Notes: generated by a model not told the origin, from the letters alone. A stretch of DNA of 48,015 nt from Nitrospirota bacterium (GCA_016217725.1 JACRHB010000081.1:1-48015), one strand, 5' to 3'. Shown: positions 982-27,417, numbered from the stretch's first letter. Numbers and translations: made by a program.

Positions 982-3900
982 TTATCTCGCTACCCCAATT
1001 GCCGCCAATTGTGAAGAATCAAAATTGGCCCCTGAAAAATCAAGCTCAAATTCTTGCCTGAAACCTATTGGCAAGGCATTATCAGAAATATTGATTATGC
1101 CGACAATGCGTCTATCAAAAACCCAATCAGTGACCCAATTATTCCCGTCCGCATTATTTCTTTCTACAATGTACGTATAACCCATATTAGTATCATTTAT
1201 TTGACAGGACAGCCCGCTAATTCGATTGCCTGTGAGATTGTAATTTTTCGTCCAGACATAATCACTGTATAGCTCAGAAGCTGATCTTGTAAAGCTAACG
1301 CCCAGATCAGTCTTATTTAACATGTTTCCTATCTTATAAACCATTACATAACCGGTCCGTATTATGTTTGTATATTCCGAATTAAATATCTCATCATAGC
1401 CGAAGTCATTTATAACAACCACATTGTCTCCTGTCCCGGTTATACCGACCCCTGTCGCAGATTGACTGCTGGAATGGAAATCGTTATCGTCATATACATA
1501 AAAAAGTATATAATTTTTATCTCCATCCATATGGTCGTAATCCATTACTCCCCTAAATTTTCTCTCGCTTGAATCGCTATTGCCATATTCTATAAAGGAC
1601 GTATAGGGCTCCCCGTCTTTTGTCAACGTTACGGTATCCCCGGAAATTGTGCTTACGATCGAGTCATAACCAGAGACCGCAGGACCTGAACAACAACAAT
1701 CAGGGTTGCTGTCAGAAATTATCTCCAGGCCCGATGTCGTACTGTCAATATTATAAGGAGATCTGCCATTTCTATATGATTCGCTCATAAATTCTTCTAT
1801 AATGTTATCGCCGACAACTAATCTGGAATGTCCGGAAGATGTAGATGAAGATACGTTATATCCGACAGTAAATGATTCCGTCGTTCTTGTTGTTACAGTA
1901 CGTTCGCACGGAGAATAGTCTATAAAATCATTATATGTGCGCGTCCTCGTAATTATTTCTTCCATGGCTCCGCCGCTTTCCGAGGAATATTGAGATGAGT
2001 CGGAACCATCTGTATTTGTATGGATGGTTTTATTCCTGTCCAATACAGCAAGGTAATCATTCCCCTCCGGAAGGTCTATCCCTCTAACCCAATTGCCGGT
2101 TTCGTCTTTATACTGAATGTGAAAAGGACCGGCATAATCGCTGCCGCTATAGGCATAGGCGCCATTTTTTCTTATATTGATATTCCTTGCTGCCAGCTTA
2201 TTATCTATGACTTCAAACGGCCTTCTGCCATGAATATAATTTGCAAGTCTTATGCCGTCTTGTCCTGACACCCATTCTCCATATGTAAACCCGCTATCCC
2301 AGGCATAAGGGCTTCCTTCAGCAAAATTAATTGGGACGTAAGCCTGCGGGAAACCCTTTACAATATCGTGCCACCATGAATCATAATCAAACCTTTTACC
2401 ATATTTGCTTTCGCCTATCAGTGTAGGTCCGTAACTCGTCTGAAAACTGCTGTCCGCATTATAACGGGAAATCGGCAACATAGCCGTATGTTCCTTTTTA
2501 TTCGGATGGGACTGTACTGTTAATGATGTCGAACCGTAGGATGTATTGATATTGATGTCTTTATCAGTTGCCGGTATTAACTGATATTGATTGTTAGCGG
2601 GTTTAATTTCAAAAGCTGTCTGCTGCCTATCGAGGTTCACTAAAAACAAGAAATCCCTGTTAAGCTCATGCACTCTCCCGACAACCGCCTCTTCTTCATT
2701 GCCGAGCCTTCCTCTAAAAACAAGGGCGTATCTTTTTGCATCATACGGCAGGTTAAGCTGTACGTTGCTGCTTTTGTTATTACCTGAGCTCAATGTGCCG
2801 AGTGTGAAGCTGTAACTCCAGAGCATTATTCTCTCGTCATCTGAGTCATCATAGTAAAGCTCAAACGTTCCGTCCATGTTTTCTTCCGTGTTGTTTACGA
2901 TCACGTACCCTGAGCCGGTCTCTGTATCATCTGCCAAGTCAATGTCTCCCCGGAAGAAATAATTCAAAAGCCCCGCTGAGTAACCGACGGCGCGGGGGAT
3001 GAGAAGGGTAGCATAGTCTTTGTAAACATTATCGTCCAACACCGGAATTTTAGGAAGAGCAAAGCTCAATAATGGGTATTGATTTCTGTAATAATCAAGA
3101 AAATCCACAGCAGCGAGTAAATATCCCTGCCCCCTATTCGTCTCGCCACAGCAATTCTTTTTATAATATTGTCTCATGTACGTACCAAAAGGGCTTGCAT
3201 GAGATGTTTCAGTTATTGTCGTACCTTCAATTCTCGGATAAGGATAATCGTTAAAATTTGCAGCGAACAGGCCTTCACTCACAAAATTTGCATTGGCATA
3301 TTCCGCAAGTCCAATCGCAGTTCCAGCCGTCACAGTTGGGTCAGGAGCCGCGCTGTTGTATTGATCTGTATCAAATATCTTCGCAATCGGGATCGGGGCT
3401 AATGGGTTCGGCGTATATGTAAGAATGACAGGGTCAAAGGGGACCGGATTTGCAAGTGCATTATCAAATATAATTCTTTCTTGCAGGTCATCACTTGTCC
3501 TAAATTTATCCACTGCTACCTCATAGGGCTCATCAAGAACATGAATATCATCCCTCGTATGCGCAGGCACGCTCATATCTTCTACCAGATGCATAATCTG
3601 GCCTATGCCCTGGAAAGTGTAACCGAAATATTTTTCTCTTTCAAGTTGAGTAGAGACAACTAATGCTCCATCAAAGTCTTTACCAGTCAAGGCTATGTAG
3701 TAATACTCCCTGACTGCTTTCCAAGAATACTTCCCTCCCAAAAGACTCCCAAATAAACCCTGATCCTGCGCCCACAATATGGATGATTGAGATATTCCTT
3801 TCAAACCAGCGCTGTCCCATGTTTTTAATGGATCATGGAAATGATTAAGGGATCGGGTATACATCGGCTCGTCTTCGGCCTTGCCGCCGTCTGTTATCCA

Positions 3901-4113
3901 CTTAATAATCTTCTTTTTGTTTACAGTGTCATCTATCCCGCCCGCAAAACCTAATTCCTTTATCAGATAGTCCTTTAGAGAAAAACCATTTATACTTGTT
4001 GAAGCTATTACTTCATTAAGCCTCTCATGCGTTGGTTTTTCTAATGCACTTGATAGAGATGATGAGAGTACAAGAATTATATATAATATAACTGATATTA
4101 ATCGTCTATTCAT
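982..4113 (-). CDS. Large secreted protein with N-terminal zinc phospholipase C / S1-P1 nuclease-like domain, C-terminal ~750 aa unassigned
   Basis: Signal peptide. Motifs KPTHERL, NHFHDP and HLVEDMSVPAHTRDD (H-x3-D-x3-P-x-H) match the zinc-ligand pattern of the PLC/P1 nuclease fold. It starts 13 nt after the upstream gene stop, so it is in an operon. Confidence 0.65.
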   Translation of the reverse strand: MNRRLISVILYIILVLSSSLSSALEKPTHERLNEVIASTSINGFSLKDYLIKELGFAGGIDDTVNKKKIIKWITDGGKAEDEPMYTRSLNHFHDPLKTWDSAGLKGISQSSILWAQDQGLFGSLLGGKYSWKAVREYYYIALTGKDFDGALVVSTQLEREKYFGYTFQGIGQIMHLVEDMSVPAHTRDDIHVLDEPYEVAVDKFRTSDDLQERIIFDNALANPVPFDPVILTYTPNPLAPIPIAKIFDTDQYNSAAPDPTVTAGTAIGLAEYANANFVSEGLFAANFNDYPYPRIEGTTITETSHASPFGTYMRQYYKKNCCGETNRGQGYLLAAVDFLDYYRNQYPLLSFALPKIPVLDDNVYKDYATLLIPRAVGYSAGLLNYFFRGDIDLADDTETGSGYVIVNNTEENMDGTFELYYDDSDDERIMLWSYSFTLGTLSSGNNKSSNVQLNLPYDAKRYALVFRGRLGNEEEAVVGRVHELNRDFLFLVNLDRQQTAFEIKPANNQYQLIPATDKDININTSYGSTSLTVQSHPNKKEHTAMLPISRYNADSSFQTSYGPTLIGESKYGKRFDYDSWWHDIVKGFPQAYVPINFAEGSPYAWDSGFTYGEWVSGQDGIRLANYIHGRRPFEVIDNKLAARNINIRKNGAYAYSGSDYAGPFHIQYKDETGNWVRGIDLPEGNDYLAVLDRNKTIHTNTDGSDSSQYSSESGGAMEEIITRTRTYNDFIDYSPCERTVTTRTTESFTVGYNVSSSTSSGHSRLVVGDNIIEEFMSESYRNGRSPYNIDSTTSGLEIISDSNPDCCCSGPAVSGYDSIVSTISGDTVTLTKDGEPYTSFIEYGNSDSSERKFRGVMDYDHMDGDKNYILFYVYDDNDFHSSSQSATGVGITGTGDNVVVINDFGYDEIFNSEYTNIIRTGYVMVYKIGNMLNKTDLGVSFTRSASELYSDYVWTKNYNLTGNRISGLSCQINDTNMGYTYIVERNNADGNNWVTDWVFDRRIVGIINISDNALPIGFRQEFELDFSGANFDSSQLAAIGVAR

Positions 4114-4126
4114 ATAAACCTCACTT

Positions 4127-4696
4127 TTATTTCCTAAACCCTAAGTTTCTATTCTCAATATCAACCATTTTTAGCGTATTCTTAAATTTCTCTTCTGGGA
4201 CAGAACTATCAATAACTGTTTCGACTGCATTAAGACTTTTTATTCTCTCCTCTCTCGTCTTAAGTTTCGGAAGTTCGATAATGCCAGGAGATAATCTGAA
4301 TACCTTCCCTTTCTCGGGCAACTCAACTGCCTTGTCTGTCACATTTTCATCAAGACGTATGTCTATACTTAAATACCCAGGCTTGAAGATCGTGAATTCC
4401 GGCTCTCTGATGTAACTTACTATCGGCAATAGATTAATCGGCGTATATGACGGAATCTCAAAAGTTCCTTCCTTATTGGTTAAAACCTCCTTGGCTTCAT
4501 AGAAATAAGTATTAGCACCTGCAAGGGTTCTATAAGCCCTCTGCCATACTGCCAGAACAACCGCGTCTTCAAGAGGCTCTTTTGTTTCTATGTCGATGAT
4601 CTTACCCTTCCAGGGACCTGCGGCAAAAACATATCCACAGTTCAGTGAAATCGATAACAAAATGTAAAAAGCGCTTAATAAGATTTTATTAATCAT
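4127..4696 (-). CDS. Small secreted protein, possible carboxypeptidase-regulatory-like beta-sandwich
   Basis: Signal peptide (..GYVFA/AG). GKIIDIETKEPLEDAVVLAV resembles the CarboxypepD_reg-type strand pattern. Sandwiched 13-16 nt from both giant genes. Confidence 0.6.
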   Translation of the reverse strand: MINKILLSAFYILLSISLNCGYVFAAGPWKGKIIDIETKEPLEDAVVLAVWQRAYRTLAGANTYFYEAKEVLTNKEGTFEIPSYTPINLLPIVSYIREPEFTIFKPGYLSIDIRLDENVTDKAVELPEKGKVFRLSPGIIELPKLKTREERIKSLNAVETVIDSSVPEEKFKNTLKMVDIENRNLGFRK

Positions 4697-4712
4697 ATCA
4701 ACTCCCTATCTT

Positions 4713-7700
4713 TTAAAATTTCCCTATCTTCCATAATCCATCCGCATCTTTTACAAACAAGAGATGGAAAGAATATGCAACACCATTTCTCGTTACAATT
4801 ACTTCATACTCGGCTCTACGATCTTCGATCGTGACCAGTTGGATTTGTCCCATGTCATTGGCGATGATGTCAAGGATAGGTGATAGGGCAGTAAATTGTT
4901 GTCTGTATGCTTCCTGTGAATTTGTATCGAAAAGTTCGACCGCCCCTTCAACATTCTGATTCGCCAAAGCCGTTCTCATGCCATTCCACTTTCCCTGCAG
5001 CAATACATCCAATTGTGCCGAATTGAGTACTGCTATTGCAATTGTATCGGTATAAGTATTGTTCTGGTCATCTGTTACCGTCACAGTCGGATAGTAGATG
5101 CCTTCTGTTGTGTAGGTATAGCTTATATCGTCAAAGTTTGCTCCGGTATAATCAATCGTTCCGTCCCCCTCGTAATCAATCTGATAACGTGCCGCCGAAT
5201 TGGGTACCTCTGTTGATACCGAGAAATAAGTTGTAAATGGAGCTATACCTGATTCGACGTTTGCCCTCAGGGTCACATGCGGTGATGAGATTGCAGCATT
5301 TACGGTTATTGAGGCGGTTGATGCGTTACCCGATGTGTCTGTTGCGGTGACCGTTATTACGTTTGAACCCTCTGTTAACGGCACATGGTTTATTACAAAT
5401 TCATTATTGTAGACAGTCGCTGTCGTTCCGTTTACAACCACGCCTGTTTCATTGCCTGTGGCATTAATTATGGCGCCTATGACCATTACATCCGGCCTTG
5501 ATATGACAGCTCCGTTCAAAGGATAGGTTATGATTATCGGTGGAGTTGTAAAGCTCATATCCTCTCCATAACTCGTTCCGCCGCCGTTGGATGCCGCTGC
5601 TCTGTAATGGTAAGTTGTGTTTGGGATAAGTCCCGTTATATTTGCCGATACCCCGACATTGTTTATTCCATTTCCTATGGACTGAATAGTCGTAGTATTT
5701 CCATAAGAAGTAGTTGTCCCCCATAGAAAATATACAGTGGTATCCGCGCCGTTTGCATTGACTGCTGCGTTTAATGTAGCAGAGCTGCCGTTAACATTTG
5801 TCGGCGGATTGGTTGTTACCATCGGAGGAATAATCAATGTTGTTGCATTTGCCTCGTTGCTGAAGTCGGAATTTCCATCAGCGTTATAAGCCCGCACCCT
5901 ATAGTAATAAGTTGTTCCTGTCAGCAGCCCGGTGTCAGAGTATGTAGTTACATCCGCTTCCTTAGTTGCAATCAGCCTGTATGTCCCATCAATACCGAGC
6001 TTACGCTCTATTTTGAAGCCGATTTCGTTGCCGGAATTATCCGTCCATGAAAGGTTTATCTGACCGGAAGATATTGCCGTAGCCGTTAAATTGGAAGGCG
6101 CCGGAGGAGCTATTTTGAAGCTTATGTCATCGCCATAGCTTGTCCCGATAATATTGGCTGCTACTATTCTATAATGGTAAGTAGTATTCGGTAAAAGCTC
6201 CGCTATATCGGAAGATACAAAGACGGCATCTATCCCATTCCCTATGGATTGAGAGGGGGTGACAGTTCCATAGGATGTGTCTGTGCCCCACTGAAAATAG
6301 ACCGTTGTCTCTGCGCCATCGGGATTGACTATGGCATTTAATGTAGCGGAGCTGCTGTCTATATCGGTTGCAGAGTCGGTTATGACGGCAGGCGCGCCTG
6401 CCGAAGCAAGAGGAAAGGCGTCATCTCCGTCATTTATGCCGTCGCCGTCGGTGTCGGGGTTTGACGGATCTGTGCCTATAAAGCTTTCTTCAACGTCCGT
6501 TAACCCGTCATTATCATTATCGGCATCGCATACATCACCTATTCCGTCGCCGTCCGCATCTAATTGGTCCGGGTTGTAAACAGACGGACAATTGTCAGCG
6601 TTGTCTCCCACCCCATCGCCAATATTCAAGGTGTAAAGATAGATATCTTCGTTTCCATTTCTATCATCTGTATACACAATGTTGTCCCCTGATATTGCCG
6701 GGGAATATTGCGCTGAGGGATTTGCAGTAGCCTGAATCTCCGAGCCTGAGGCTATGTCATACATATAAATATCTGAGTTGCCGTTTCTCCAATCCTCCCA
6801 GGCAATGCGGTCTCCTGAAATCACGGGGTAATACTGATCTGAGGCATCTATGGTAATTTGTGTCTCAACGCCTGTGGATATATCATACGTGTAAATATCA
6901 TCGTATCCATCTCTATAACCTTGCCAGACAACACGACTCCCTGATATGGCCGGATAATATCGTCCTTCAGGATTTGAAGTTGCCTGCGTTTCAACTCCTG
7001 TTAATATATCATACATATAGATTTCAGCATTGCCGGTTCTATAATCCATCCAGACGATGCGACTCCCCGATATGGCCGGATCGTATGCATAAGTATTTGC
7101 GGCAATCTGTGCCTCAACACTTGTGGATATGTCATACATATAAAGGTCGCTTCTATAATCCGTCCAGACGATGCGGTTACCTGATATGGCAGGATTGTAT
7201 TTGGATGTGGCGGATGTGCTTAATCGCGATTCAACACCTGTGGAGATGTCATACATGTAGATATCACCGTATCCGTCTCTATAATCTTCCCAGACAATAT
7301 AATCGCCGGAAATAGCAGGAGACCAGGGGTCCGAGGAATCCGTAGTAACCCGTATCTCAACTTTTGCAGCCTTATCATACATATAGATATCCCACTTGTC
7401 GTTTCTTCTGTCCAGCCATACGATTCTGTTTCCTGAAATTGCAGGATAACGTTGATCAAAAGGGTCTGTAGTAATTCTCAATTCTCCGGCATCTGAATCC
7501 CGGGTATCTTCAGGATTTAAAGGAAAGGCATCATCTTTATCATTTACTCCGTCACCATCCGTGTCGGGATTAGAGGGATTGGTTCCCAATTGAAACTCTT
7601 TAAGGTTGGTCAGCCCGTCTCCGTCAGAATCTTCATCAGCATCATTAACAAGAGGATTTAGGTGATTATTAACTTCCCATCCGTCAGGCATTCCGTCATT

Positions 7701-9002
7701 GTCCGTATCGGCTTTTGAGGGGTCTGTCCCAAGAACTCCTTCTTCATAGTCTGTTAAATCATCATTATCGGTATCCGGATCGGGCGTCATAAAGCTCATG
7801 TCATTCCCGTTGCTTGTACTTCCGTCATTGACTGCAACTGCTTTGTAATGATATGTCGTACCGGGTAAAAGGCCCGTCAAATTAACCGATGCGCTAACAG
7901 CGCTTATTCCGTTTCCTATTGTCTGTGAAGGGGTTATATTCTCATAAGATGTAGTTGTTCCCCATTCAAAGTAAACGATGGTTTCAGAGCAATTAGGATT
8001 GACTGTTGCATTCAATGTGACGACGTCACCATTTACAATAGTCGCGGGTTGGGTAGTCACAGTCGGGGGAGTCATTGTCGCAGAATTTGCTTCATTGCTG
8101 TAATCAGAGTCTCTATAGGAATTATATGCTTTTACTCTGTAATAGTATGTCGTTCCAGGTGGCAACCCTGTATCAGAGTATGCGGCAATGTCTGCTCCGA
8201 CAGAAGCTATTTCTACATATGTGCCGTCAGCGTTTGTCTTCCGCTCTATTTTAAAGCCGGTTTCATCATTGGAATTATCTGTCCATGAAAAATCTATCCG
8301 GCTTGAGGAGATTGCTGCTGCATTAAGTCCGGATGGCGGGGGAATGTTTAATGACTGAAGACCATCTATCAATCCAAATGTAATTGGGCCTGAGCTGATG
8401 GTTGTAAAATTTTGTGTAGGAGGAACATACAATTGCATTTTCATACCGCTGACATTTGTTGCCCCCAGATAAGCCGCCAACTCGTTAATATATCTTGAAG
8501 GATGCAGACTGTCATCTCCGTTCGGGTGCAAAATTATATTGTGTAAATTTAGGGTAGCAGGATCATTGGCATTCAACCATTGATTCATCCAAACATAATA
8601 CGTGCCTTGCTGCGTAAATGTGCTGTCAGCTAAGACAGATGTAAAATAAACATAACCATCAGTTCCGATAATTGAAAAAGTGACATCATCCGGATCAGCC
8701 GGAACACCATTAAAACTATAATCCCCCGTTCTTGTAGCTCCGGAAAGAACTACACGCGCGCCATAAATAGTTTCAACACCGGGGACATTCACCTTCCAAA
8801 CATCTCCGTTTTCATAATCCATTTCCTTCACGGTTGTATTAAGGGTCAATGAACCGGTTCCGATCCCGGCAGTAACCTGATAAGTACCGCCAAACCGTAC
8901 CCATGGAAGAAGAGTAGCCGCCCAGCTACGTTCAATCATAAAAGACATTAGAGACAGGATAACGATTAATGCTACTGTTAATCTTTTGTTAACGCTCCCC
9001 AT
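4713..9002 (-). CDS. Giant secreted multidomain surface protein (FN3, TSP3 calcium-binding repeats, 7-bladed beta-propeller, Ig-like, PKD, NTF2-like C-terminus)
   Basis: Signal peptide aa 1-28. FN3 signatures ([21 protein letters not shown]) x2. [11 protein letters not shown]-type domains x3. DTDNDG/DTDGDG TSP3 repeats x2 blocks. 7 x [24 protein letters not shown] blades. PKD (YxxDYEGDG). AGGAGG SD upstream of ATG 9002. Confidence 0.85.
6624..7490 (-). repeat. Seven tandem ~42-aa beta-propeller blade repeats inside the giant CDS
   Basis: aa ~505-793: seven copies of (Y/S/N/D)PAISG(N/D/S)RIVW.D.R.G..DIYMYD...G.E. The periodicity also creates the spurious antisense ORF 6860-7315. Confidence 0.8.
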
Positions 9003-9162
9003 TCGCCACGCCCTCCTCGATATATTTTAAAAGTACTATTTTCTTATCAGTTGTTATTTGCTTTGCGGACATTAGTCCGATAAATAGGTTGTTGAAGGTC
9101 AGTACGACTCAATCCCAAAATTGAAGCCATGTCTTGTTCCTCGCTTAAATACAGGATGGATT

Positions 9163-18114: not shown

Positions 18115-18816
18115 ATGAACACCGACTGGCAGGAGCTTGAAAACGTTCGCAAGAGATGCGAAGCGCTGGACCATGAATTGAATACGTTTTTTCAGTCCAT
18201 AAAAGAGATGAAGGAGATAAGAGATTCCGTTTCCATGCTTCCCGACAAGCTGAAGCAGAGTGAAGAGGAGCTCGAGAATCAGAAGAAAGAGATAGAGCGC
18301 CTTATGTCTTTCACGGGCAATCTGCTTATAACGTTTGAGGAGCAGGCGAAAGGGCTGTTCTTCGATCTGGAAAAGAAGACCGAGACCCTGGCGGGCGACG
18401 TGAGATCAGGCATATCCGATCTGAAAAACGTCTTTGAAATGAACAGCATGAGACTGAGCGACGAGCAGAAAGAGAAACTCGAACAGATAGCAAAGGCGTT
18501 TGATCATATGAAGACTTATTATGAGGAAATGAAAAAGGCGCTTGAATCTCACGAGCAGGCGATCAACAGCCTGAAGAACAGCCACGTTGAGCTGTTGAAA
18601 ATGTTTGAGAGCGTTGAACCGTCTCTTAAAAACATCCATAAGACAATATCCGATCTGCAAAGAAGGCCGTCTGACGTCGAAAATAAATTAAGGGCTGTGG
18701 AAGAGCAATTGAGGGAGCTGTTTTTCAAAAAACTCGAAAGGCAGAAGCACGTTATCCTGGCGATGCTGATAGTGCTGCTGGTGAGTGTCATCTTCTTTGT
18801 TTTTTATCCTAAATAA
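18115..18816 (+). CDS. Tail-anchored coiled-coil protein, unknown function
   Basis: About 200 aa rich in E/K/L heptad-like sequence, then a single C-terminal TM helix (HVILAMLIVLLVSVIFFVFY). Starts 3 nt after the acd stop. Confidence 0.6.
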   Translation: MNTDWQELENVRKRCEALDHELNTFFQSIKEMKEIRDSVSMLPDKLKQSEEELENQKKEIERLMSFTGNLLITFEEQAKGLFFDLEKKTETLAGDVRSGISDLKNVFEMNSMRLSDEQKEKLEQIAKAFDHMKTYYEEMKKALESHEQAINSLKNSHVELLKMFESVEPSLKNIHKTISDLQRRPSDVENKLRAVEEQLRELFFKKLERQKHVILAMLIVLLVSVIFFVFYPK

Positions 18817-18834
18817 TTGCCGCTGATTTGCGGC

Positions 18835-18905
18835 TGGTTCAGACTTGCAGCCTGAACCACATATTAATGCCGTAAATGTTTGGTTCAATCTACAAGATTG
18901 AACCA
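18835..18905. promoter_or_regulatory. Four alternating TGGTTCA / TGAACCA segments (two hairpins with alternative pairings)
   Basis: TGGTTCA 18835-18841, TGAACCA 18853-18859, TGGTTCA 18881-18887, TGAACCA 18899-18905. Confidence 0.4.
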
Positions 18906-19036
18906 GCAGGAGAAAAACTATTACATATTTTAATATCCTGATTTCCCCTTGACTTTGTCTTCGATTTTTAATTAAATATTTTCCGCAATCCTTGATTGCT
19001 TTCCATAATAATCTTAAATAACAGGAGGAGTTTTAT

Positions 19037-19723
19037 ATGAGATTGTCAAAAGTTCTGATTGCGCTGCTTTGTACAATCGCCGTTGCGGCGCTTGTCTATG
19101 CCGGCGCAGGAAAAGGCGATGAGTCACTGGGTAAACTTCTTGACGGCAATAAGAGATTCATCTCGGGAGGATTATCTAAAAAGGATTTAGGCGACGCCAG
19201 AAGGAAAGAGCTTACAAAGGGACAGCATCCGTTTGCCACCGTTTTATCCTGCTCCGATTCAAGGGTGCCGCCTGAGCTCGTTTTTGATCAGGGTCTCGGA
19301 GATATTTTCATAGTAAGAGTGGCGGGAAACGTCTTGGAGCCTACCACCCTCGGCAGCATCGAGTACGGCGTAGAGCACCTCCACACTCCTTTATTGGTTA
19401 TTCTCGGACACGAACAGTGCGGCGCGGTAAAGGCGACGCTTGAGCTGAGCGGTGAGCCGGAGGGGAATATCGGCGCCATTTTGAAAAAGATAATGCCGGC
19501 AGTCAAGAAAGCCAAAGAGGCCAAGAAAGACAAAGACTCCACCCTGCAGTTAGCTGTACAGGAAAACGTTAAGAACACATACAAAGACGTAATGAAGAGC
19601 CATATAGTCGAGGAGCTGGTACATAAGGGGGAATTGAAGGTCGTCGCAGCGGAATATTATCTGAGCTCCGGCAAGGTGGAGCTTGTGGAGCTTCCTTCAT
19701 CTTCAGCAGAGCATAAACATTAA
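19037..19723 (+). CDS. Beta-class carbonic anhydrase with signal peptide
   Basis: Signal peptide (..ALVYA/GAG), then CSDSRVPPE and GHEQCGAV zinc-ligand motifs. Confidence 0.85.
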   Translation: MRLSKVLIALLCTIAVAALVYAGAGKGDESLGKLLDGNKRFISGGLSKKDLGDARRKELTKGQHPFATVLSCSDSRVPPELVFDQGLGDIFIVRVAGNVLEPTTLGSIEYGVEHLHTPLLVILGHEQCGAVKATLELSGEPEGNIGAILKKIMPAVKKAKEAKKDKDSTLQLAVQENVKNTYKDVMKSHIVEELVHKGELKVVAAEYYLSSGKVELVELPSSSAEHKH

Positions 19724-19776
19724 AAAACTGCATATACCCTTTAAGGCTCAAAGGTTTTTCTGTGGAAACCCTTTCG

Positions 19777-19815
19777 TCCCCTCCCTTGACGGGAGGGGAT
19801 TGAGGGGAGGGTGAT
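19777..19815. repeat. C/G-tract hairpin element TCCCCTCCCTTGACGGGAGGGGATTGAGGGGAGGGTGA
   Basis: Differs at only 2 of 38 positions from 35122-35159. Confidence 0.8.
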
Positions 19816-19851
19816 CCGGATAATTCATCCTTATAACTATTCTTTTCAGAA

Positions 19852-22386
19852 TTAAAACAACCTTTCCTGCGCCTTTGCGCCTTTTGCAGAAGTTCCGGCG
19901 CTGAGATGTTTTTTATTAATGATAGAGTAAATATCCAAGTCCATTTTTTCTTTTGAATATGCAGCCCTAAGTGCGTCAAAGAAGATAATCTTCCAGTTTT
20001 CGTCTTCAAAATGCTCTTTAAAAAGGGGAGACGTCATCTTGTTATAAAACTGCGCTTCCCTCTCCTCCGGCAGAACCATGAATTTATCAACCGTTTTATC
20101 AACATTTGAGCCTCTCATTAATGCGCTCATCATGCTTGTCGTTGATTCAACTTCAAAGACAGCCTCAATCTTGTTATCTTTTATCCAGAGAAGATCGATG
20201 TTTTCTACAACGTCAAAGTTTTTAGAGTTGTCAACTTTCAGATGTGTCACTGTCATGTATTCAGACAGCTTTCTTGTTTCAATTAAATGGTCTCTTTCCG
20301 GCTGCTCCCTTCTGCCGATCCAGATATCATACCCCTGTTTCTTCCCAATCATGGCTAATGTGGCTATCATCTCGTTATGCTCCTTGACCCTTTGCTGTAT
20401 CTCCTGCTTCAGCATCCAATATCCGCCTGTCAACTGACGGGCATAAATTTTTAATGCGTCAAGTATGCTTGTGCTGTCGGAAGTGAGAGAATTAGGGAAT
20501 TCCGTGCTAACCGCATCCCATACTTCAGTGAAAGTGACTTTGCCTTTTTGATGTAATTTTCTATAAACAGTTTGCTCAACTCTTTCAGTTAACGGGATTT
20601 CATTTAATCGGGAGACGATTGATGTGTCTTTAAACCACCACAGCTTGCCTTCTGCGCTGCCGATCTTTACAGGCAAAAGGACGAACTCTTTTTCAAGGTG
20701 ATTTTTTAAAACCATATTAATATCAAGTCCCGTATGAAGGCTTGAAAAGTACCCCTGCCTTGCAAGCACAGGATCAATGTAGTTGATTATAATTGTGTAC
20801 GGCGTCGGCTCCGCCCTCTCTGCAAGAAGCGCTATAGTTGTCTCAACAACAATCTTTTCAAATCTCACCTCATCAATCTCTTTTGGGGCAGCAGCCGCAG
20901 ATTGGCTTTGCGGTTTAAAGAATCTCAGATAAAAATCCCCCTGCGCCGAGCCGAAAGGCTGGAGCAAGGACTTTGCAGACGGTCTTGCAAGCTCCTGATG
21001 ATGAATCTTTTCAAATTCAAATCCCGAAAATACGCCTGCGCGGATTGTAGCGTTACGCACTTTAAAGGTCGGGTTGTGAAATGTCAGTGTAAGAAAATTT
21101 TCAGGCTTTAATACCCTGAACATGTTTCTGAAACTATCCGACAGAAGCGAGTGATAAACGCCGAAGTCTTTGCGCTGCTTTTCATTTCTGATAATCTCAT
21201 TCGACACTATGCCGTTAAGATAATCGCCATTCATATTCAGCCACGATACCCACATGTATGACAGTTCGCCGTACTGTATTGAGGCGTCATACGGTGGGTC
21301 GGTAAAAATGTAATCAGCCGAGTCTTCCGGCATCTCTTTCATCAGATCAATGCACGAACCGTTATGAATATAGATATCAGCCTTGCCGTCAATAACCTGC
21401 TCAAATGAAGAAGCGATTTTGACATCTTTAAAGAACTTATTGGACTCTGCCTTTGCCTTTAAAAGTCCCTGATGTCCGTTAATGGCGCTGTCGAATTTAT
21501 TCCAGACATTCTGCTCCATATATGGTCCTGACGGATACCAATAGCTGTGTTGAGTCCATGCAGAGCTAAACGGTGTGAAATGCCCTGCCTCTGAAATTGG
21601 ATTCATTCTTGAGCAGAGATGCGCCATTGATGAAAAAGCCATCTTGAGAAAATCCTTTAAAACTCTTTTAGGCTCGTCCTCAATTGCCTGCATCAACCAT
21701 GCAAGCGCCTGAAGATTGCGCTTTGTGAAAAGCTCATCAACCGAGTCGTATTTTTCCTTCTTCATAAAAGGATGTCCATCAGGATAATAAAGCTTATTGG
21801 TTGGGTACCATTCCTTGATTTTGGATGATTCTATTTTCTTAAGTAGACGTTTATCGTCATGAGTCAGTTCACAATCAGCCCTGCAACTGTTTCCACATTT
21901 CGGGCACTCCTGATACCTGATTTCAAGGCATTCATTGTTTTTCCATATTGCGCAGGCAAAAGGGAATTCCTCGCCGCAATCCCTGCACTTTGTCAGATAG
22001 AGGCTTTCTATCTGTTTCTTGACCTTCTCCTCAACTCTTTTGAATGCATCATGCAGCTCTATGTCCTTGACTGGTTTGATCGTTAAACGTATTATCTCGG
22101 TCGCAATCGGATTGAGATCGCAGACGATGGCCTTTCTGCCGTTTTTAAAAGCCTCCATTGCTGTGATTCCGCTTCCGGCAAAGGGATCAAAAACAATTCC
22201 GCCTTCAGGGCAATAAGTTTTTATAAATTCTGAAACGACATTCCACGTCTTTCGTGACCAGTATTTATGCCATACGTACATTGACGTATGTGCCTGCGGG
22301 GGGATTTGACGGTTGAGATGATTATAGATTTTTCCTGATGCGCCTGCCTTTGCGTCTCTTTCTTTTCTTAATCTATTCCGCCTCAA
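19852..22386 (-). CDS. Alpha-permuted N6A/N4C DNA methyltransferase with internal Zn-ribbon and long C-terminal extension (nuclease-like)
   Basis: HKYWSRK, FDPFAGSG (aa 66-73, motif I), CRDCG..CPKCG Zn-ribbon (aa 134-164), DPPY (aa 363-366, motif IV). Unassigned C-terminal ~340 aa include IDLLW...EAVFEVEST. Putative TTG start overlaps the upstream gene by 14 nt; the next in-frame ATG is at 22281. Confidence 0.75.
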   Translation of the reverse strand: MRRNRLRKERDAKAGASGKIYNHLNRQIPPQAHTSMYVWHKYWSRKTWNVVSEFIKTYCPEGGIVFDPFAGSGITAMEAFKNGRKAIVCDLNPIATEIIRLTIKPVKDIELHDAFKRVEEKVKKQIESLYLTKCRDCGEEFPFACAIWKNNECLEIRYQECPKCGNSCRADCELTHDDKRLLKKIESSKIKEWYPTNKLYYPDGHPFMKKEKYDSVDELFTKRNLQALAWLMQAIEDEPKRVLKDFLKMAFSSMAHLCSRMNPISEAGHFTPFSSAWTQHSYWYPSGPYMEQNVWNKFDSAINGHQGLLKAKAESNKFFKDVKIASSFEQVIDGKADIYIHNGSCIDLMKEMPEDSADYIFTDPPYDASIQYGELSYMWVSWLNMNGDYLNGIVSNEIIRNEKQRKDFGVYHSLLSDSFRNMFRVLKPENFLTLTFHNPTFKVRNATIRAGVFSGFEFEKIHHQELARPSAKSLLQPFGSAQGDFYLRFFKPQSQSAAAAPKEIDEVRFEKIVVETTIALLAERAEPTPYTIIINYIDPVLARQGYFSSLHTGLDINMVLKNHLEKEFVLLPVKIGSAEGKLWWFKDTSIVSRLNEIPLTERVEQTVYRKLHQKGKVTFTEVWDAVSTEFPNSLTSDSTSILDALKIYARQLTGGYWMLKQEIQQRVKEHNEMIATLAMIGKKQGYDIWIGRREQPERDHLIETRKLSEYMTVTHLKVDNSKNFDVVENIDLLWIKDNKIEAVFEVESTTSMMSALMRGSNVDKTVDKFMVLPEEREAQFYNKMTSPLFKEHFEDENWKIIFFDALRAAYSKEKMDLDIYSIINKKHLSAGTSAKGAKAQERLF

Positions 22387-22924
22387 GAAGTTTCACCATC
22401 CTACGGATTAGCTCATAAGCTGCGGCGATCCTGATTACTTTTACGTCGCCTAATCCTTTTATTGTTGCCATGTCAGACAGCTTTTCTCCCATTATGCCGC
22501 TTAATGATCTGTACCTTCTTAACAACTCCTCTGCAAGGTCTTCCGGTGTTTTGTCTTTGTAACCGCTGCAAATCAAAACGGCAAGGAGCTCTGCATCCGT
22601 ATAATCAGGCAATCCCAGCGTAACTTTTCTCACAGCGGGCAGATGCCATTGATTTTCTTTTATTACCCTCTTGCCGATTTCATATGGAGCGGCAAGCCTC
22701 TTAATCTTACCATTTTTCAAACCCTTTATTTTTGAGAGATCGTCAAAGGTTTTATTCCAGAGACCATAAATCCCGAAATAGCTATCAAGCAGCTCCTTTG
22801 CAATATCCTGCGCCGTCCTTCCTTTGTAGCCCGATCCAATGAGAATCTCAAAAAGCTCGTCCTGTGATAATGAGTGTGCGCCAAGCTCTATAAGCTTCCC
22901 GCCCGGGTGCGTCCATGTCTGCAT
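22373..22924 (-). CDS. Tandem RadC-N-terminal (helix-hairpin-helix) domain protein lacking the JAB/MPN domain
   Basis: Two copies of the L(S/T)..EL..(I/V)L(I/C)(G/C)SGYK..(T/P).(Q/E)D(I/L)A.ELL......(L/I)......(D/S)(L/M)..IKGL pattern typical of the RadC/YicR N-terminus. No JAMM motif. ATG 22924 with GAGGGG SD preferred over track start 22981. Confidence 0.7.
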   Translation of the reverse strand: MQTWTHPGGKLIELGAHSLSQDELFEILIGSGYKGRTAQDIAKELLDSYFGIYGLWNKTFDDLSKIKGLKNGKIKRLAAPYEIGKRVIKENQWHLPAVRKVTLGLPDYTDAELLAVLICSGYKDKTPEDLAEELLRRYRSLSGIMGEKLSDMATIKGLGDVKVIRIAAAYELIRRMVKLLEAE

Positions 22925-23114
22925 AATATCCCCTCTCAGTTTCCAACGCCTTAAATTGTAATTCTCCTTTAAAAATGTCAACGCTTAATTTTAATCAAAC
23001 AAAATATAAACGGCAAGGGAGAAATAGTGCCATCAACGGGGTTTACCTGTTTAAACTCAATGTCGTATAATATTCCCTCAATTCAGTCATAAAAAAACTT
23101 TAGGAGAATAAACA

Positions 23115-26097: not shown

Positions 26098-27417
26098 TTA
26101 TTGATAAATAGGCAGATGCGAGATGCGGTCGTTGATCACGTTCACGATATTAACGTATTTGGGGTTTTCGACGTTTACGTAAATGCGCTCGAATTCGGTC
26201 TTGGTGAGATCCTCAGGAAGGTCGTTGATCGCGGGGAAGAACGTGTCTTCGCTGATCTCTCCGTCGAGCATGGATTGTATTTTCCGTGCGCCTCCCGTAC
26301 GGTCGGTTGCGACCTCGGCAAGGCGCATCCCTGAAAGGTCGGCGGCGAGATCAATGAAACTGAACCCGCTGCCGCCCCTGTTTGAGTCCAGCATCTCCTT
26401 GAATTCTCCGATCGCGTATGTAATGCCGCTGTCCGTAATTATTTTAAGCCCGGCGGAGATGACGAAGTGCAGCCTCAGGTCTTCCCGTCCGCCGAGAAGC
26501 GCTCTCCGTAATACCGTGCGGCGGTATTTCACACCCTCCGGGTGCACCGGACCTATAAACCTTTCGAACCCTCTGTCTCCGGCAAAGGTTGCGAGCGCAA
26601 GCAGAGCCGCCTTGTTTTCTTCCGCGGGCTCGCTCTCAAGCGAGCGCTGCCGCGCCAATTGAAATAAAGGGCCGATGAAATAGGCCAATGATACAGGCGG
26701 CCCGGACCGAACGCGGTCTTCAAGAGTTAATAATTCGGCATAATAAAGGCGTATGGCTTCCGGGTCGGAGAGGGGGGGGAAGAACTCACGAAGGGATTGA
26801 AAGCGCTTGACGATCTTCTCCCTGCGCTCAATGAGATCGGGGATCCGCTGCAGATTTAAAGTAACGGTGTCGCGTCTGAAATTAACGGATTGCACGGAGC
26901 CCGTCCATACGGTGCCGTTTTCATTGCCGAGAACGATGTCGAGAACCAGGCGAAACAGAAAAAGCGCGAGGCGGTCGGATATTTTAATTTTGCCGATGGC
27001 AACCTGTGACAAATGAAGTCCCGGGTCCGACGGGAAAACGCCGACGCGCACGTTTATGAAATCGCCGACGGGGTTGTGCGGCAAATGATAGGTCATCGCA
27101 GCATAAAGTCCCGACTGTGTAATGTTCACGCGGCCTTCCAGCCGCTTTATTCCACGCGCTGCAACGGCCATCAGGCTGTTGAGGTCCTCTTCGGAGGCCG
27201 AGATGGAGATGGAGGCATGATCCTGTCTTATGATCCCTCTCAGGGTTCTTTTTGCCAGGTTCTTTGCGAGCGCCGCCCTTTCGGTATTGATTATCTCCGT
27301 CTCTTGCACCGCCGGTTTTTTTTCAAGAATCAGCAGAAATAAAACGGACGGGACTACGACCATCAGGAGCAGAAGGAATAAAAATAAATTTCGGAATATT
27401 CTACTGCGCGATTTCAC
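26098..27417 (-). CDS. Membrane-anchored hypothetical protein (439 aa)
   Basis: Single N-terminal TM helix. No motif I recognise. Long uninterrupted ORF convergent with fabD and 4 nt from ilvE. Confidence 0.6.
   Translation of the reverse strand: MKSRSRIFRNLFLFLLLLMVVVPSVLFLLILEKKPAVQETEIINTERAALAKNLAKRTLRGIIRQDHASISISASEEDLNSLMAVAARGIKRLEGRVNITQSGLYAAMTYHLPHNPVGDFINVRVGVFPSDPGLHLSQVAIGKIKISDRLALFLFRLVLDIVLGNENGTVWTGSVQSVNFRRDTVTLNLQRIPDLIERREKIVKRFQSLREFFPPLSDPEAIRLYYAELLTLEDRVRSGPPVSLAYFIGPLFQLARQRSLESEPAEENKAALLALATFAGDRGFERFIGPVHPEGVKYRRTVLRRALLGGREDLRLHFVISAGLKIITDSGITYAIGEFKEMLDSNRGGSGFSFIDLAADLSGMRLAEVATDRTGGARKIQSMLDGEISEDTFFPAINDLPEDLTKTEFERIYVNVENPKYVNIVNVINDRISHLPIYQ

Follow-up and report, generated by a model that had tools for sequence, protein, structure and literature searches.

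What fills the gap between acd and its partners etfB and etfA in a 48,015-nucleotide stretch of DNA from a Nitrospirota bacterium (GCA_016217725.1 JACRHB010000081.1:1-48015; this whole stretch is here called the window)? Two co-oriented open reading frames (ORFs) lie there on the minus strand, one at 19852-22386(-) encoding a protein of 844 aa and one at 22373-22981(-) encoding 202 aa. They had been singled out as a foreign-looking pair specifying a helix-hairpin-helix (HhH) protein and a DNA methyltransferase with a long unassigned extension, and three options were offered: an orphan methylase with a DNA-binding partner, a fused Type IIG-like restriction-modification (R-M) enzyme, or an undescribed two-component system. 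Both ORFs, their coordinates, and their 14-nt overlap were borne out, with TTG at 22386 as the start of the larger gene. Our analysis favors the fused R-M enzyme: on balance the unit is probably a mobile single-chain R-M module (Type IIC in formal nomenclature) with an accessory HhH subunit. The qualifier "Type IIG-like" proved wrong in detail, as the order is methyltransferase (M) and then restriction subunit (R), the methylase is not of the gamma class, and the R half has DNA-binding domains of its own.

The N-terminal half of the 844-aa protein reads as an intact DNA amino-methyltransferase with alpha motif order and a Zn-ribbon insert at the position of the target recognition domain (TRD), as originally predicted. 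This domain spans aa ~22 to 492 [20911-22323(-)] and has the Dam-like (alpha) arrangement in which the TRD lies inside the Rossmann fold. Motif I (FDPFAGSG, aa 66 to 73) at 22168-22191(-) forms the S-adenosylmethionine (AdoMet)-binding loop, and its residues D67, P68, F69, G71, S72, and G73 are invariant in 45 sequences. It is followed by the Zn ribbon of the TRD insert (C134-x2-C137 ... C161-x2-C164, aa 134 to 164) at 21895-21987(-), all four cysteines of which are invariant in the same set, and by the equally invariant motif IV (DPPY, aa 363 to 366) at 21289-21300(-), the catalytic loop. Motifs I and IV stand at exactly the positions first proposed for them. Motif I aligns with those of M.RsrI and CcrM, as does motif IV. 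The protein scores 57.4 bits with the Pfam family N6_N4_Mtase (PF01555), for which the cut-off is 26.7, and a MethyltransfD12 (PF02086) match also falls in the methylase half. An AlphaFold2 (AF2) model of the whole protein, built with 45 sequences from two clades (pLDDT 75, pTM 0.69), contains beta-hairpins at residues 131 to 158, in the Zn-ribbon region, and the best Foldseek matches of the full model in the PDB were E. coli Dam complexes (~465 columns, E 7e-5, TM-score on the target 0.52). In PADLOC, the methylase half matched Type II methyltransferase models at ~3e-34 (MTase_II, 3e-34) and PglXI of BREX type 3 at 1.2e-43, the latter as a partial match of aa 170 to 492 to profile positions 333 to 623 of 919.

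Plasmid-borne relatives of this methylase occur in an R-M-type context, with AAA ATPase and DUF2357 genes adjoining. The nearest annotated relatives of the methylase half, at 29% identity and without the C-terminal module, are found on Kurthia plasmid pND2a (L084) and Thiospirochaeta plasmid pSpe (L085). Both genes are divergent from the gene upstream (an AAA family ATPase in L084 and a "hypothetical protein" in L085), after which comes a DUF2357 gene, in a McrBC/LlaJI-like restriction context.

The remaining ~340 residues, which had been left unassigned, can now be described as two winged helices and an NmeDI_C domain, and the gene at 19852-22386(-) as a whole is read, from the ORF, its homologues, and the AF2 model, as encoding a fused methyltransferase/winged-helix/NmeDI_C-nuclease-like protein of 844 aa. 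The tandem winged helices, at aa ~506 to 585 and ~599 to 659 [20410-20871(-)], appear as the element order H-H-H-E-E, twice, in both AF2 models: a separate model of the C-terminal region (aa ~497 to 844; pLDDT 78.7) gave the same two helix-helix-helix-hairpin units as the full model. When the C-terminal model was searched with Foldseek against the PDB and BFVD, the matches, all with weak E-values, were restricted to winged-helix proteins (TrmBL2, RPC62, cullin WHB, and E2F/DP), which supports the assignment. We predict that the two units serve as the DNA-recognition module of the R half.

The terminal domain, at aa ~661 to 820 [19927-20406(-)], contains a putative PD-(D/E)xK-type nuclease core. 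Its secondary structure elements follow the order α-β-β-β-α-β over residues ~661 to 800 with pLDDT values of 80 to 95, and in the model helix 1 carries H670, strand 2 has D731 at its start, and strand 3 has E745-x-E747 at its end. Across 34 terminal-domain sequences that are 23 to 48% identical to the window copy, H670, G681, D731, E747, and W798 are invariant, and there is hardly any variation at T750, R758, and position 745 (E, occasionally D); the acidic pattern of the domain is D-x13-(E/D)-x-E. That D731 and E745-x-E747 occupy the canonical PD-(D/E)xK site positions, with E replacing K, is suggestive rather than proven; BamHI is a K-to-E variant of the same motif. Every homologue that we looked up, including one 90% identical to the window protein (P0001), has a precomputed Pfam match (E <= 1e-5) to NmeDI_C (PF27126). 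This label maps to the terminal domain, because a 182-aa protein consisting of that domain alone (P0316) carries PF27126 as well. The lack of a separate endonuclease, which the original prediction took as an absence, would by this homology reflect an endonuclease that is fused and not missing.

The case for reading the fusion as an R-M enzyme is strongest at a locus in which the two halves are encoded as a split M and R operon (L087). Its 506-aa M gene product is 33% identical to window aa 22 to 492 and ends right past the last methylase strand, and the M stop codon overlaps (GTGA) the start of a 313-aa NmeDI_C gene; a resolvase gene lies alongside, and there is no HhH gene. The break between M and R falls where the fused form has its low-confidence linker. 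The C-terminal module thus behaves as a separable R gene, as in a classical M-then-R operon. Judged by the sequences compared, L087 is the only convincing split form. Three other candidates for standalone R proteins were rejected, P0269 because a contig end cuts it and P0270 and P0318 because both start within the last methylase strand.

The fused form is widespread. An exhaustive phmmer search with the C-terminal 348 aa against 1.84 billion representatives gave 717 matches at E <= 1e-3; nearly all of the full-length matches are 800 to 870 aa long with the module at ~490 to 810, and the remainder are shorter fragments. The family falls into at least 717 clusters when grouped at 50% identity and into more than 1800 at 90%. 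Full-length homologues of the window protein show 70 to 90% identity, and 70 to 80% full-length identity is seen between metagenome-assembled genomes (MAGs) labeled Nitrospirota, Nitrospinota, and Desulfobacterota. Besides these three phyla, carriers include Verrucomicrobiota, Planctomycetota, Acidobacteriota, Bacteroidota, and others. In databases the large and small proteins go under the names "DNA adenine methylase," "RsmD," and "DNA repair protein RadC."

Rearranged and partial copies were also seen. In P0257 (359 aa), an internal deletion has brought the motif I region of the methylase directly up against the second winged helix and the nuclease domain, and in P0251 (331 aa), that same C-terminal portion follows an unrelated N terminus; both look like signs of frequent decay in the family. 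A lone 182-aa NmeDI_C ORF, apparently a module remnant, lies between the genes for EF-G and a DUF72 protein with no methylase nearby in two loci (L171:1497-2045 and L172:1280-1828). Two further loci are syntenic from Amdase to RecD2 (L168:5001-8236 and L170:5001-7481). The first has a tandem HhH gene and an 866-aa M-R gene; in the second the HhH gene alone remains, and a 292-aa N6_N4_Mtase is encoded on the opposite strand at the expected place of the large gene.

Several observations weigh against an active restriction enzyme, and they have to be set beside an alternative in which the large protein is an orphan methyltransferase. Its C-terminal domain would then be inactive and nuclease-derived, kept for DNA binding or regulation, with the HhH protein as a helper, and the outcome would be an epigenetic mark or protection with no restriction. 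The NmeDI_C label reaches the window protein indirectly, via the precomputed matches of its homologues. The terminal domain matched no known nuclease by structure or profile: Foldseek of the C-terminal model against the PDB and BFVD returned no nuclease, a hidden Markov model profile of the 34 diverse terminal domains searched against PDB sequences gave nothing credible (best match uL13, E 0.68), and per-member Pfam and PHROGs scans of the domain revealed no common family. The motif has E at the canonical lysine position, and E694, which never varies among close relatives, does vary in the family at large. The whole protein, TRD included, is strongly and evenly conserved, also between phyla. 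Because the specificity of R-M enzymes often diversifies, this pattern is uncommon among them and more like that of a housekeeping methylase. The lone terminal-domain remnants, which persist without a methylase (L171), suggest that the domain alone is not toxic. Three more points tell against a single-chain R-M enzyme with an HhH subunit: the M and R halves each have a DNA-recognition module and would need to read the same site, the HhH gene is absent in about a quarter of loci, and the carriers in our reference-genome survey are all uncultured (MAGs).

Even so, we consider an orphan methylase unlikely. The invariance of D731 and E747, and the near invariance of position 745, at such low identity imply selection on a catalytic-type site, and an active restriction enzyme contains a homologue of the terminal domain. 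The split operon in L087 resembles a classical R-M pair. The distribution of the family is patchy and mobile, often close to toxin-antitoxin or defense genes, and the decay products described above (P0257, L170, and L171) are typical of selfish or defense modules. Ordinary restriction-modification is the most likely function of the module in our view.

What, then, does the small gene contribute? Its product matches Pfam UPF0758_N (PF20582) at 2.3e-26 and 92 bits in two stretches, which agrees with the tandem RadC-N-type HhH units first recognized in it. The NCBIfam RadC profile is matched only at positions 3 to 86 of 212 (104 bits against a cut-off of 180). No JAB Pfam match was found in the protein, and all 120 listed homologues have PF20582 without JAB; as the JAB/MPN domain defines full-length RadC, the label "DNA repair protein RadC" that databases give to these HhH proteins is misleading. 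Taken mechanically, the ORF reaches back to a TTG at 22981, but the ATG at 22924 is more likely to be the start, giving a gene at 22373-22924(-) and a protein of 183 aa. This choice is favored because a GAGGGG ribosome-binding site precedes the ATG and because the resulting length is that of most homologues (mostly ~183 to 187 aa among the 120 listed, range 103 to 234).

The HhH gene ends at a coupling junction with the large gene, a 14-nt overlap at 22373-22386(-), read from the sequence, between the HhH stop codon and the TTG start. The TTG start and the overlap stand, since conservation of the large protein begins at about residue 20, no other in-frame start exists, and the same geometry recurs: the -14 TTG arrangement was found again in 12 other loci. 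Translational coupling, proposed from the window alone, was seen well beyond it. In 58 of 60 loci the start codon of the large gene lies -14 to +10 nt from the HhH stop (-1 in 25, -14 in 12, and -4 in 10), and gene callers report overlaps of the same kind in L079, L081, L083, and L168. The pair is also conserved elsewhere, as the original proposal had required: among 78 loci from reference MAGs and metagenomes, 74 had room for an upstream gene, and in 56 of these the gene immediately upstream, in the same orientation, encodes an HhH protein. The HhH gene is not universal: loci of Bacteroidota and Acidobacteriota, and some of Planctomycetota, lack it, and in L021 and L022 the enzyme gene directly adjoins enolase. 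Its form varies as well: Verrucomicrobiota and others have one unit of ~90 aa, and the clade of the window has a tandem. The identities of the HhH and large proteins to the window copies are correlated (r = 0.91), and in L168, where the HhH protein is only 44% identical, the pairing is kept with a 4-nt overlap. Taken together, the comparisons indicate that the pair is a co-inherited, translationally coupled unit whose HhH partner is dispensable in some lineages. No R-M system known to us includes a RadC-N HhH protein in translational coupling, and no description of an HhH/M-R pair was found in the literature searched.

The region upstream of the module, 22925-23040(-), contains a promoter-like TTGCCG-17-TAAAAT at 23016-22988, picked out by a consensus scan only. 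Seven verrucomicrobial copies (L027, L034, L044, L062, L072, L073, and L077), which come from different genomes, have in common the upstream motif CTTGC-N14-15-CTTGCC-GTTTYC ~50 nt before the HhH start; this could represent a promoter, or a direct-repeat operator, that travels with the module.

One possible role for the HhH protein would be that of a C-protein analogue, a transcription regulator that delays nuclease expression in a new host and is not an enzyme subunit. C genes of PvuII-type systems are laid out in this way in C-R operons, and the HhH gene is likewise small, encodes a DNA-binding protein, and lies immediately upstream of, and overlapping, the nuclease-bearing gene; promoter-like sequences upstream of it are conserved within clades. 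We regard this role as improbable. In 59 regions upstream of HhH genes we found no operator, palindromic or otherwise, common across clades. The fold is HhH, normally a non-specific binder of the DNA backbone, and not helix-turn-helix (HTH), and tandem and single-unit forms interchange between clades, unlike dimeric operator binders. Moreover, M and R are one polypeptide, so that a delay of R would equally be a delay of M. On the lack of a cross-clade operator and on the fold, the controller role was not supported.

A second possibility is a non-classical two-component defense in which the M-R protein is licensed on DNA that is invading or replicating by the HhH protein, acting as sensor or loader. 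There would then be no simple "cut if unmethylated" logic, and the system might resemble BREX/Pgl-type exclusion or one triggered by free DNA ends. PglXI of BREX type 3 is the best PADLOC match of the methylase core (1e-43), and this core has its architecture, with an inserted TRD, in common with PglXI and the DUF1156 methylases; the HhH protein is a tightly coupled, co-evolving partner with no counterpart among R-M systems known to us or in the literature searched, and RadC-N HhH domains bind DNA without sequence specificity. On the other side, none of the BREX or DISARM partners (BrxC, PglZ, BrxHII, BrxA, BrxF, or a helicase) was found in the window or in the homologue neighborhoods that we inspected, and we rejected assignment to BREX type 3 on this ground. 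Where the HhH gene is missing, the enzyme is otherwise intact, so the HhH protein is not an obligatory sensor, and a split M and R form without HhH exists. We judge this kind of defense decidedly unlikely.

A bolder version of the R-M reading keeps both proteins together. The HhH protein and the M-R fusion would form an obligate complex, a new R-M subtype in which HhH loads or bridges the enzyme and gates an NmeDI-like two-sided, two-site cleavage; in its stronger form, this becomes the HhH-licensed defense just described. If it were true, immunity would depend on a DNA-clamp-like accessory and not on a specificity subunit or a controller. We hold it to be conceivable but doubtful.

How did the unit come to lie at this site? 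In the window, its neighbors are acd, a coiled-coil membrane protein gene, and a beta-carbonic anhydrase gene on one side and etfB/etfA on the other. An unbroken plsX-fabH-acd-etfB-etfA order is found in metagenomic etfB relatives (L098, L118, L121, L123, and L132), with just 18 nt between acd and etfB in L098. In a relative whose etfB is 85% identical (L088), the end of the coiled-coil gene is followed by a 43-aa carbonic anhydrase remnant and then by the etfB promoter region, with no methylase or HhH gene; that promoter region aligns with window positions ~23040 to 23075. The right edge of the insert, from this alignment, lies before the conserved etfB promoter region. Because relatives have acd adjoining etfB and L088 has the site without the two genes, the two-gene unit is an insertion, with the carbonic anhydrase gene on one side and the etfB promoter on the other, in support of the foreign insertion originally proposed.

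Composition was a weaker guide. The G+C content of the module (0.428) is below that of the flanking fab, acd, and etf genes (0.50 to 0.55), as a rough count had suggested. The window mean is 0.467 (standard deviation 0.03 for segments of the same size), 11% of same-size segments are as low as the module, and its tetranucleotide distance ranks at 17%; not being significant at the scale of the window, composition was rejected as proof of foreignness. Only short, chance-level repeats were found when flanking repeats or att sites were sought around the module, and no tRNA, integrase, or Rfam RNA family was found at the insert. At its left edge, a hairpin read off the sequence, CCCCTCCC-TTGAC-GGGAGGGG, occupies 19778-19798 between the convergent carbonic anhydrase and M-R genes, with a perfect 8-bp G/C stem; a second GAGGGGAGGG copy comes after it. 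The hairpin may be a bidirectional terminator; a consensus terminator scan missed it because it has no T-run.

The coiled-coil and beta-carbonic anhydrase genes (18115-19723) are themselves absent between acd and etfB in the five relatives with the unbroken order, and this pair looks like a separate, earlier addition. The acd-etfB junction appears to be a recurrent spot of insertion or deletion, and the fatty-acid/ETF operon of this genome would have been split by at least one, probably two, insertions.

Elsewhere, the neighbors of the module other than the HhH gene vary from lineage to lineage. Frequent ones are toxin-antitoxin genes (PIN/PhdYeFM and HTH_3+SecB), NERD, Abi_alpha, and AAA_15+DUF4276, and housekeeping genes occur too. 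The differing neighbors, the empty sites, the 70 to 80% identity across phyla, and the toxin-antitoxin and defense-type neighbors together lead us to regard the module, from these genomic comparisons, as horizontally mobile. No other R-M or defense component was found in the window.

Other parts of the window were noted in passing. Three co-oriented genes at 982-9002(-) encode products of 1043 aa (no Pfam match), 189 aa, and 1429 aa (fn3, TSP3, and PhoD_N-like repeats), which are probably cell-surface proteins. Their stretch takes in the lowest G+C content of the window (0.36 to 0.39, at ~500 to 1500 and 3500 to 5000) and, at ~4250 to 9100, its largest tetranucleotide deviation. Directly after fabD, an ORF at 26098-27417(-) encodes 439 aa; its product begins with a membrane helix and matched nothing in Pfam at E <= 1e-5.

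On the single-chain R-M reading, the 844-aa protein would act as an M-R fusion whose N-terminal half, a DPPY-type methylase of Dam topology, marks host DNA as self, most likely by N6-methyladenine at a specific site; this base is probable because of the DPPY motif. The C-terminal half would be a complete restriction-enzyme subunit, in which the two winged helices recognize DNA and the NmeDI_C domain, with its metal-binding-type motif, cuts unmethylated incoming DNA, possibly away from the site like R.NmeDI. Translational coupling would supply the HhH protein in a fixed ratio to the enzyme, and this protein is most likely an accessory, non-specific DNA-binding subunit, for loading, two-site bridging, or restraint of the nuclease, and not a transcriptional controller. 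Our analysis shows which domains and conserved residues are present, that the two genes are paired and coupled, that the unit is inserted, and that a split M and R form exists; from these we infer the nuclease activity and its cleavage geometry, the methylated base, the target site, the role of HhH, and the defense phenotype. The module is most likely an uncharacterized, widespread, and architecturally unusual variant of R-M systems. If that is true, it represents a large, multi-phylum family of single-chain R-M enzymes, could yield enzymes with new specificity and possibly site-excising cleavage, would account for many entries mislabeled "RsmD" or "DNA repair protein RadC," and would provide a first functional context for JAB-less RadC-N proteins.

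How does the module compare with systems already known? The small protein has in common with RadC (UPF0758) the N-terminal HhH domain PF20582, which is duplicated in the window, and differs from it in missing the C-terminal JAB/MPN domain. It also differs from the C proteins of R-M operons, being HhH and not HTH, with no C-box-like operator common across clades in the 59 upstream regions. The methylase, for its part, resembles PglXI and the DUF1156/COG1743 methylases in having the TRD inside the Rossmann fold, a Zn ribbon, and an N-terminal HKYWSRK-type motif, and genes annotated "DUF1156 domain-containing protein" match it at 22 to 24% identity in tblastn. The resemblance to this group that had been pointed out holds for the motif and the Zn ribbon. 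It does not extend to family membership, which we rejected, though the methylase is related: the window protein gave no Pfam DUF1156 (PF06634) match at E <= 0.01 and only 30.5 bits, confined to the motif I region, against the NCBIfam DUF1156_antiphage cut-off of 1000. PglXI and the DUF1156 methylases, moreover, are without the module of two winged helices and NmeDI_C.

Among R-M systems, BcgI (Type IIB) likewise combines an R-M polypeptide with a smaller DNA-binding subunit encoded alongside. In BcgI this second subunit resembles Type I specificity subunits and contains two TRDs, whereas the partner in the window is a non-specific HhH protein that is dispensable in some lineages. A second likeness to Type IIB is that NmeDI, the relative of the nuclease-like domain, excises its site by two-sided cutting. 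The NmeDI system includes a Vsr gene, and its methylase, M.NmeDI, is a C5-cytosine methylase. Its R is a separate protein that goes with a different methylase (nmeDIM), while in the window R is fused behind an amino-methyltransferase. R.NmeDI of Neisseria meningitidis is a biochemically characterized Type II enzyme of 351 aa that cuts RCCGGY on both sides, needs two sites, and is active as a tetramer (PMC2095814); the text consulted mentions no HhH partner and offers no analysis of domains or motifs (PMC2095814). In Pfam, the terminal domain of the window protein and the C-terminal domain of R.NmeDI fall into one family (PF27126), and the C-terminal module (~348 aa) is close to R.NmeDI in length. 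The overlap in L087 between the R gene and the 3' end of M has its parallel in that of nmeDIR with nmeDIM (PMC2095814).

With the Type IIG/IIC enzymes MmeI, BpuSI, and Eco57I, finally, the window protein shares a methyltransferase and a putative endonuclease in one chain and the lack of a separate R gene. Enzymes of the MmeI/BpuSI/Eco57I type run from a nuclease through a gamma-class methylase to a TRD, with one TRD for both activities. The window protein instead starts with an alpha-topology methylase that has a Zn-ribbon TRD of its own and continues with two winged helices and a nuclease-like domain; in domain order, methylase class, and separate recognition modules, its architecture is not that of Type IIG. 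We know of no studied counterpart in which a complete methylase is fused head to tail to an NmeDI-type restriction subunit. As modeled, the window architecture is such a head-to-tail fusion, joining a complete M to a complete R.

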